Shown here: positions 8,516 to 9,749 of the stretch, piece after piece
Numbering within the stretch: position 1 is the stretch's first letter
Layout of the letters: each line of letters begins with the position of its first letter
Origin: Botryllus schlosseri
Lineage: Eukaryota
Length of the DNA stretch: 64,000 nucleotides
Assembly: GCA_051294905.1 (NCBI GenBank)
Contig: CM119377.1
Span: 28,272,001 to 28,336,000, forward strand
Direction of reading: 5' to 3'
Made by a program: the position numbers and the translations under genes
Notes under the pieces: generated by a model
Database searches by the model: none
Seen by the model: the letters and a program-made list of their open reading frames with translations, nothing else
What the model was told of the DNA's origin: nothing

Positions 8516-9731
8516 GACCGTAAACGGACTGGTGGTGATTAGACATTTATTATGTGAATAATTGGTTGTTACTACAGTAATATGATAGCGAGTACTATGC
8601 CTGTAGGCTTTACATAGGCGTTATACACCGACCACGCCCTATATTAGTGTCGGGGCCCTTCACCCTAACGGGATAGAAGCTTAGGATTAGAAATGGTTAG
8701 GGATTTCTTCAGAAACCCGTAAAAGAGACCCTGGGTATCTAACAGTGTTCGAATAAGCAACACCTTGTTAAGGGTAGTATCATCAAGTGCACTTTAATTG
8801 GCATATGGCCATGTTAATCGGGTCAACGATACAAAGTCCTTAATGTTGGAACCTCCCGGAGTTACGCGTTATATCTAGCTACGCACCCTTAGACTAAGCT
8901 AGGAACCTCTACCTTATTGGAGCATGTGTAGAGTTAAAGATTCGTGGTAAATCAGATCTATTGTTTGTGAGACACGGTACATACGAATGAATAAAAAGCT
9001 TATACACACCGATACAAAGGAACCCAGAGATATAACAGATTGTGATTAAAACATAGGATCGTGCATGACTGTTGTGATTGAATGGTGTATCATGTAGCGA
9101 TATGTCATGAATGGACTTTACGGCAGGAAAGGCCGTCACATTCATTAGATGTGTAAACTAACCTTGGAGCTGCTTTACGGCAGGACAGGCCGTCACATGC
9201 ATTATATGTGTAAACAAACCTATGAGCTATTTTACGGCAGGAAAGGCCGTCACATTATTTATATGTGTTAACAAACCCTGAAAGATACGACTTCGGCAGG
9301 AAAGGCCGTCGCATAGTTTATATGCGAAAACAAACCTTGGAGTATTTAAAATACATTTAATCGTGCATGAATATGAATAGGTTCAAGCTTTATCTTGTGT
9401 TATAATTGATGGATATTCTATGTGCCAATTTAACCGAGTTTTGCTTAGATACCTCATTCTGTCTGCATGGATATTTGATTGGTTGTATTAAGGCTTATTT
9501 ACACGTTATATAAGGCTAGATTAGAACATTGGACCTAAGGGTCATTGGCTGATGCTGAAAGATACAACTACTGCAACTATCGCAACTACCGCTACTTCAA
9601 TCAATATCTCCGGACGTCGTCTGGACAATACAGTGCAATAGAAGGTCAATTCCTCACCGCGAAGTAATCCGAACCAAGTGTAGACGGCCCGCATAACAAT
9701 CGTTACTGGGGCTGCACTATAAAGACACTAC
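8516..9731 (+). promoter_or_regulatory. Single LTR-like non-coding block upstream of the PBS
   Basis: 1.2 kb without long plus-strand ORFs. It contains a tandem array, a TATA-like TATTTAAA at ~9343-9350 and AATAAA at ~8989, and ends immediately before the PBS. There is no second copy in the window. Confidence 0.5.
9117..9345. repeat. Four tandem ~57-bp units, each with two short dyads
   Basis: Cores start at 9120, 9177, 9234 and 9293. Dyad 1 is ACGGC-AGGAAAG-GCCGT; dyad 2 is CACAT-N7-ATGTG, which becomes CGCAT-N7-ATGCG in unit 4. The array is bracketed by ATCGTGCATGA at 9058-9068 and 9360-9370. Confidence 0.9.
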
Positions 9732-9749
9732 TGGAGGCACCACTGGGAG
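9732..9749 (+). promoter_or_regulatory. Primer-binding site complementary to the 3' end of tRNA-Thr
   Basis: TGGAGGCACCACTGGGAG matches 16/18 to TGGAGGCACCGCTGGGAT, the complement of the vertebrate tRNA-Thr(AGU) 3' end as I recall it. It lies 427 bp upstream of gag. Confidence 0.8.

Follow-up and report, generated by a model that had tools for sequence, protein, structure and literature searches.

A giant env-bearing, probably reverse-transcribing element family with Merlin-type ends in Botryllus schlosseri, and a possible circular route for its copying

We analyzed a 64,000-nucleotide stretch of Botryllus schlosseri DNA (the window; C7:28272001-28336000 of a 495-Mb assembly), which is best explained as a damaged copy of a giant env-bearing, reverse-transcribing element family. 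Units of this family measure 31-57 kb and have fixed ends, GG..CC, that are the same in every copy. The family appears to combine a circular cycle of reverse transcription with a cut-and-paste DNA transposase. In our best model, the element copies like a pararetrovirus and integrates like Merlin, corresponding to the full definition of neither. Specifically, we consider it moderately likely that a circle with a single U3-R-U5 gives rise to terminally redundant RNA, that this RNA is reverse transcribed, and that the transposase opens the product at the junction of its two ends.

The ends of the unit are defined by comparison of insertions. The right end falls on a single base (window 27108), after CAC(T/C)AGTTCC and followed by its own flank each time (26 insertions), and left ends were located as the points where homology between copies stops. 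The right-end motif has 58 genomic occurrences and the left-end motif 65 genomic matches, with 0 for the control in either case. When the two ends are compared in five copies, they form an imperfect inverted repeat in which 10-15 of 21 nt are alike. The target-site duplication (TSD) is 8 bp and exact in 22 of the 26 insertions; one insertion has an exact 9-bp TSD, two have one mismatch, and the window copy has none. Six of the eight long copies have an exact 8-bp TSD (C1, 44.2 kb; C12, 38.3 kb; C3a, 38.2 kb; C3b, 38.4 kb; C10, 31.3 kb; C15, 45.0 kb), C16a has a TSD with one mismatch, and the flanks of the window copy, which spans 57.4 kb including inserts, form no TSD. The ends of the short copies (10-18 kb, n = 18) were paired by motif alone, blind to the TSD, and the pairs thus obtained show an exact 8-bp TSD in 16 cases, a 9-bp TSD in 1 and a single mismatch in 1. 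Dozens of young copies with exact ends are present in the genome. The mismatch between the flanks of the window copy (C7:28241724-28241731 and window 27109-27116) is unlike nearly all other copies, and this copy may be a recombinant of two insertions or may have undergone an adjacent deletion.

The left part of the window was interpreted through the C1 copy, and it contains the following features.
1..476, plus strand: left arm, continuing upstream of the window to the left end; 96% to the C1 copy
477..3159, no strand: unrelated insert of about 2.7 kb, absent from the C1 copy
3393..4295, plus strand: ORF-A, 300 aa, subfamily cargo, no Pfam match; dN/dS 0.31 against C1
4890..5960, plus strand: ORF-B, 356 aa, subfamily cargo; dN/dS 0.19
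6375..6656, plus strand: short acidic-repeat ORF (SIM), inside a 118-bp tandem repeat
7589..8515, plus strand: LRR protein with a hydrophobic C-terminal stretch, subfamily cargo; LRR_8 E 6e-46, dN/dS 0.37
8543..8544, no strand: breakpoint of a 5,791-bp deletion with AC (2-bp) microhomology, from comparison with C1

In the C1 copy, window 1..476 adjoins window 3160; position 2971, where an initial annotation of the window had placed an edge of the element, is therefore inside the 2.7-kb foreign insert, and the element extends leftward beyond the first base of the window. The left-end motif places the left end of the window copy at C7:28241732, about 30.3 kb before position 1. In the three copies where the distance was measured, 23.9-29.9 kb separate the left end from the primer-binding site (PBS). 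As such, the left arm, previously put at 5.5 kb, is about 24-30 kb long across the family. The four plus-strand ORFs described upstream of the pre-PBS block are present. The SIM ORF has 93 aa in the window and 197 aa in C1, and ORF-B has no usable family match and no Atlas match. The block from ORF-A to the LRR gene (3160-8544) was found in the window and C1 copies only, joined to gag-pol both times, and is variable cargo of the left arm. Position 8543 was considered as the left end of the family and rejected, since it is the deletion breakpoint; in 27/27 other left-flank rows (26 insertions), a different, common sequence precedes it.

Two further features were seen in left arms. The left arm of the window copy holds a Polinton/adintovirus-like element of 13.4 kb (C7:28247263-28260678), labeled by eye from ORF motifs, with long perfect inverted ends and a 6-bp TSD, GTCGTC. 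The left arm of C1 alone holds a second IS1595-type transposase ORF, 44% to the first (L064:3738-4676), and no GG..CC ends with a TSD were found around it.

The sequence signals that bear on the mode of copying lie on both sides of the genes.
8543..9731, plus strand: one U3-R-U5-like non-coding block, the distal remnant of a longer one; retained in 18/18 short copies
9115..9345, plus strand: four 57-bp tandem repeats, presumably enhancer-like
9507-9513, plus strand: TATA-like TATATAA, in long copies only
9540-9546, plus strand: GGTCA(T/C) motif, in 9/9 loci examined, the window and a divergent relative
9732..9748, plus strand: PBS for tRNA-Thr(AGT), by match to a host tRNA gene
27022..27033, plus strand: polypurine-tract (PPT) candidate, ending 75 nt inside the right end
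27057..27062, plus strand: AATAAA poly(A) signal, 52 nt inside the right end
27088..27108, minus strand: true right terminus, common end of insertions, reading GGAACTAG.. inward

The PBS reported at 9732 was borne out: in the window, 17 nt of it match the 3' terminus of a host gene for tRNA-Thr(AGT), and in C12 and C3b the match extends to 18 nt. The reverse complement of the PBS together with the T-loop occurs at 18 genomic places (control hits, 0), and the 3 of these places that were analyzed are all called tRNA-Thr(AGT) by ARAGORN. Among 25 insertions (28 rows, three of them repeats), the PBS is of the tRNA-Thr(AGT) type in 19 and of the tRNA-Thr(CGT) type in 6, with both types sitting within flanks that are 80-99% alike to the window. 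The second type matches the sole tRNA-Thr(CGT)-like gene found, over 19 nt (ARAGORN). In retroviruses, the 18 nt at the 3' end of the primer tRNA serve as the template from which the PBS is renewed; a clean swap between isoacceptors therefore points to priming. We take the two PBS types, along with the purifying selection, the mosaic identity and the purine tract described below, as signs, read from the sequence, that reverse transcription is probably in use by the family. In the short copies, the PBS matches the tRNA for 11 nt only (17 of 18 scored), and no host tRNA that fits its extension was found. Just before the PBS, at window 9713-9721, is TGCACTATA, which most copies also carry in their right terminus (inward). 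The preceding bases depend on the PBS type, and the recurrence of TGCACTATA may be chance.

The non-coding sequence that precedes the PBS has no partner within the element. The initial annotation had described a non-coding 1.2-kb block without a second copy, and both of these properties hold: 8516-9731 is without an ATG ORF of at least 80 aa, self-BLAST finds no second copy in the element, comparison with 24900-27108 gives no match at E<=1, and there is no R repeat between the block and either end. What does not hold is that the block is the whole unit, since the window copy lacks 5,791 bp at 8543/8544 and the 1.2 kb are thus the distal remnant of a longer block, which in other copies carries 80-bp repeats. 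An LTR pair is absent from every copy examined, and in none of them do two conventional LTRs surround gag-env, which leaves the earlier idea of a one-LTR element unrefuted. Within the block, the TATA-like sequence and the GGTCA motif, 190-225 nt before the PBS, are a candidate promoter and start. In addition, TTACACG/CGTGTAA recurs at window 9499-9505 and 27038-27044 and at left-end positions 27 and 158, that is, at both ends and just before the TATA-like box, and is a candidate protein-binding site.

On the other side of the genes, 42/42 right ends contain a run of 10-15 purines whose last base is 74-76 nt from the terminus (31 haplotypes; background 0.014 per 13 nt), although these tracts, like the 18 short copies, are related and do not count as independent. 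The tract at 27022-27033 is a candidate for the PPT that had previously not been placed, and it sits at the supposed junction at 27037. So close to a linear end, at 75 nt, such a tract would serve no purpose unless the template extended beyond that end. An A-rich tract upstream of the 80-bp repeats in C1 was rejected as the PPT, as it occurs in C1 only. The AATAAA that follows is present at 28/43 right ends, with variants at the other 15 and a GU-rich stretch downstream. Single-cell RNA depth rises in the last two bins (6.3 and 8.6, against 0.2-0.7 before); together with the AATAAA, this rise suggests that most transcripts may stop before the junction. A further RNA peak just before the PBS (depth 88.5) consists of reads from long-type copies that fit for only about 33 nt, and it was discarded as proof of a poly(A) site given the short-fitting reads, repeat collapse and unstated library chemistry. 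Finally, direct repeats of 10-13 nt are common to the first and last 300 nt, with 3-4 in three of five copies and 1-2 in the other two (shuffled mean about 0.2, maximum 2-3). These motifs, which are above chance, could reflect ends that are adjacent on a circle, a jump from one end to the other, or simply binding sites.

These signals fall into a normal order when the two ends are abutted on a circle: PPT, U3 (74 nt, junction, left arm, repeats, TATA), R-U5, PBS. Since the pre-PBS block does not recur near the right end, a linear copy cannot give terminally redundant RNA, and it is the normal signal order on the abutted circle that makes the circular model the best one. Under this model, a circle with abutted right and left ends would form by excision of a copy or arrive as an incoming episome. 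The promoter about 190 nt before the PBS would then drive an RNA that runs PBS-gag-pol-transposase-env-purine tract-[CC/GG junction]-left arm-U3-R and would be terminally redundant, as in caulimoviruses. tRNA-Thr would prime at the PBS and the purine tract would prime the plus strand, so that the functional U3 would start 74 nt before the right end and span the left arm and its cargo. The transposase would cut the product at the junction and insert it, leaving a copy that is permuted relative to its own RNA. The core of the initial proposal, a one-LTR circle opened away from the LTR edge, thus fits the family; its opening point is GG..CC.

The circle itself, which we infer, was not observed. 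No end-to-end junction was found in the assembly, where the motif gave 24 hits and the control 36, and none fell at a listed right end. Nor did one appear among the joints listed (15 of 42) for runs X1, X5, X23 and X2 with the 10-kb short copy, in a search that covered about 3% of the raw RNA run as well as contigs, from which rare forms are lost. Further points count against the circular model: read-through of the junction must bypass the AATAAA, the required RNA is about 38-45 kb long, the PBS of the short copies has its 11-nt match, and the window copy has no TSD of its own. Among the points in its favor, both termini, the pre-PBS block and a piece from the 5' part of pol have been retained in each of the 18 short copies, though these may share one ancestor. 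A test of circular against linear linkage leans circular but does not separate the two models (rho -0.30 vs -0.23, difference p 0.19), with a correlation of only 0.10 between left and right blocks; it omitted 4 near-identical copies of 18 and one of 20 windows. In the left arm and core of long copies, identity forms a patchwork of 67-100% between neighboring 400-nt windows, as expected from template switching, and DNA recombination could also give this pattern.

The genes between the PBS and the purine tract are listed below.
9779..10114, plus strand: small ORF with an N-terminal hydrophobic stretch, before gag
10159..13026, plus strand: gag-like ORF with a CCHC knuckle (zf-CCHC); dN/dS 0.12-0.31
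13005-13011, plus strand: AAAAAAC slippery-type heptamer, with pol in the -1 frame
13149..16475, plus strand: pol with protease-like motif, RT, RNase H and Tpt1/KptA-like domain; RT-RH dN/dS 0.14
16674..20682, plus strand: Merlin/IS1595-type DDE transposase, split by a hAT element; PF12762 E 3e-11, dN/dS 0.04
17313..20461, minus strand: nested hAT transposon, a secondary insertion with 8-bp TSD ATTTAGAG
20830..23412, plus strand: env-like ORF, motifs read from the sequence; dN/dS 0.08-0.16
23495..24970, plus strand: second SU-like ORF; dN/dS 0.36-0.66
25289..26632, plus strand: Thr-rich mucin-like membrane protein ORF; dN/dS 0.5-1.1

The Tpt1/KptA-like domain occupies the end of pol (window 15969-16472). 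A scan of the window pol and of six close relatives, of which three are partial, found no integrase (rve). The transposase occupies the position of an integrase, between pol and env, and has its D, D and E residues; the C1 ORF matches PF12762 (DDE_Tnp_IS1595) at E 2e-13. The env-like ORF has a signal-like start, a basic cleavage motif, a fusion-peptide-like hydrophobic stretch and a C-terminal TM; Atlas leads to class I fusion proteins are below 0.9, and no solved structure matched. Going by these motifs and its dN/dS, the ORF is a candidate envelope gene that would suit enveloped particles. The dN/dS values are pairwise, for the window against independent insertions, with one pair (C1) for RT, the N-part of the transposase and the cargo. 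Gag, RT, env, transposase and cargo are under purifying selection.

The first alternative to the circular model is that the unit is a Merlin DNA transposon of the cut-and-paste kind, with a retroviral cassette as its passenger, and moves only as DNA; gag-pol-env may then make particles or help the host lineage without copying the element. Merlin ends, TSD and transposase are sufficient for movement (PMC8101967), the near-identical 10-kb copies, which are without RT, have spread recently with a PBS that matches the tRNA for only those 11 nt, and the transport of a virus within a DNA transposon has a precedent in Teratorn (PMC5601938). However, passengers should drift, yet dN/dS for RT, gag and env is 0.08-0.31. 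A clean swap of exact tRNA-Thr complements is also hard to obtain without primer copying, and the short copies retain internal signals that a DNA transposon does not need. We therefore regard this explanation as unlikely.

Next, the RNA may run end to end, from near the left terminus to the poly(A) site at the right end, with priming inside it, about 24 kb copied to the 5' end, and a jump to the 3' end on direct repeats; the cDNA would be permuted, yet no excised circle would be transcribed, and the transposase would integrate the rebuilt product. The position of the poly(A) signal, the rise of RNA at the right end, the direct repeats common to both end regions and the fact that the circle has not been seen all speak for this explanation. 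Against it, the common motifs differ in order and spacing between the ends, and about 48 nt on the left and 25 nt on the right would lie outside the RNA with no internal template (self-BLAST). Furthermore, the TATA-like and start-like motifs precede the PBS by about 190 nt, which is the layout of a normal R-U5. Altogether, we find end-to-end RNA quite improbable.

It is very doubtful that a former two-LTR retroelement was nested in a large Merlin element and lost its 3' LTR, leaving the PBS as a relic. Nested insertions are indeed common here (hAT, Polinton-like and other inserts), but pol is without integrase and ends in Tpt1, as it also does in relatives from other data sets. Moreover, the transposase is located between pol and env, a 3' LTR remnant is seen in no copy, and the selection data speak against a relic.

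Practically nothing is left of the proposal that one circle came open at random at 27037/2971 and acquired CGTGTAAA as an 8-bp duplication, because 25/25 other right-end loci run through 27037 and end at 27108, position 2971 is in the insert, and the repeat, which does exist at 2963-2970 and 27038-27045 (self-BLAST), is at chance level, given that six different 8-mers are common to the two neighborhoods against about 2.3 expected. We accordingly rejected CGTGTAAA as a TSD. The initial annotation had asked whether other insertions share its permutation; all share one fixed opening point, which is not 27037/2971, and the Merlin-type 8-bp duplications argue for a programmed cut by the transposase rather than a chance opening.

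Returning to the circular model, a close parallel is with Caulimoviridae such as CaMV, which likewise have protease-RT-RNase H without integrase. Caulimoviruses have an internal PBS and terminally redundant RNA. Their circular genome is copied by reverse transcription without integrase, as stated in PMC11363490. The best solved match to the window RT is CaMV RT (PDB 8R0S, E 1e-16), and Ty3 RT about ties with CaMV RT for two relatives, so that closer kinship with caulimoviruses does not follow. The element differs from Caulimoviridae in its animal genome, its env-like and mucin genes, its size of about 40 kb and its Tpt1 domain, and from episomal caulimoviruses in having its own transposase, fixed ends and TSDs.

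With Merlin and the IS1016 group of IS1595, the element shares the DDE_Tnp_IS1595 transposase, 5'-GG ends and an 8-bp (once 9-bp) TSD. Merlin elements have terminal inverted repeats of 24-462 bp; the ends compared here in five copies are alike at only 10-15 of 21 nt, and PMC8101967 gives precedent for highly imperfect repeats in Merlin. The bacterial IS1016-type ISApl4 forms circles joined through an 8-bp repeat, according to PMC12561309. Elements of the IS1595 family are described with a single transposase gene in PMC8101967; here, unlike in Merlin, the transposase gene belongs to a gag-pol-env cassette that also has a PBS and purine tract, in a unit of 31-57 kb.

Like env-carrying Ty3/gypsy elements (errantiviruses in the wide sense, the subject of PMC13524379), the element has gag-pol-env order, a tRNA PBS and a -1 frameshift-type junction, and the nearest named RT matches are Ty3/gypsy at 20-27% identity; unlike them, it has neither an LTR pair nor an integrase. 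The terms transposase, Merlin and phosphotransferase have 0 occurrences in the main text of PMC13524379. Teratorn resembles the element as a virus-like genome with transposon ends that is integrated by a DNA transposase, and its excision was proposed as a route of reactivation (PMC5601938). Teratorn is, however, a DNA virus with piggyBac (a piggyBac-alloherpesvirus fusion), whereas the element here reverse-transcribes and uses Merlin. DIRS and Ngaro elements lack integrase and are thought to integrate circular cDNA at a junction. The element differs from them in its DDE transposase, 8-bp TSD and tRNA PBS; no Pfam match to a tyrosine recombinase was found among the ORFs scanned, nor were split or internal complementary repeats.

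Relatives of pol share this organization. P0001, P0002 and P0037 (39-48% identical) lack an integrase and have RT-RNase H-Tpt1, to which an AP-endonuclease-type domain is added in P0002 and a dUTPase in P0048; the combination of Tpt1 with these domains hints at needs for end-sealing or repair. In a 43-row tree that includes no named caulimovirus, seven RT-Tpt1 rows form one clade (100/99), and the nearest row outside it has an integrase. Relatives of the transposase at 61-69% identity are present in public assemblies, and no relative with genomic context was found among metagenome or viral contigs. A search of the freely available literature, covering listings, abstracts and passages of main text, turned up no paper on a retroelement that carries a Merlin transposase.

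Reverse transcription of the LTR type is believed to depend on one of two arrangements: a pair of LTRs together with an integrase, as in retroviruses and Ty3/gypsy, or a purely episomal existence in which nothing is integrated, as in pararetroviruses. If the circular model is true, the family would link pararetroviruses, retroviruses and DNA transposons, would raise the size of genomes copied by RT to about 40 kb, and would explain why LTR-based screens miss such elements. On a broader reading, which we advance tentatively and with slightly more doubt than belief, the family represents a lineage of enveloped, pararetrovirus-like animal viruses with a circular genome of about 38-45 kb, for which the Merlin/IS1595 junction is the switch between provirus and circle. 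Over half of that genome would be a gene-bearing U3 with the end-to-end junction inside it, and a further integration chemistry would stand beside integrase, tyrosine recombinase and target-primed insertion.

Several other sequences related to the family, or inserted near it, were observed. A short copy on C11 (L141/L142) contains an exact tandem duplication of 6,950 bp that takes in both the pre-PBS block and the PBS, either a very recent event or an assembly artefact. A divergent relative (65-80%) on the minus strand at window 46488-49971 has the same pre-PBS motifs, and no tRNA gene was found that matches its PBS-like site at 48880. At window 31956-34896, a fragment of a deleted relative joins a pol piece to the mucin region and ends at 34897, where it is cut by hAT-like sequence. 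Finally, the window contains a THAP/P-like element (57419-61402) with 67-bp inverted ends and a 3.7-kb element (27725-31386) with inverted ends of 98-127 bp.
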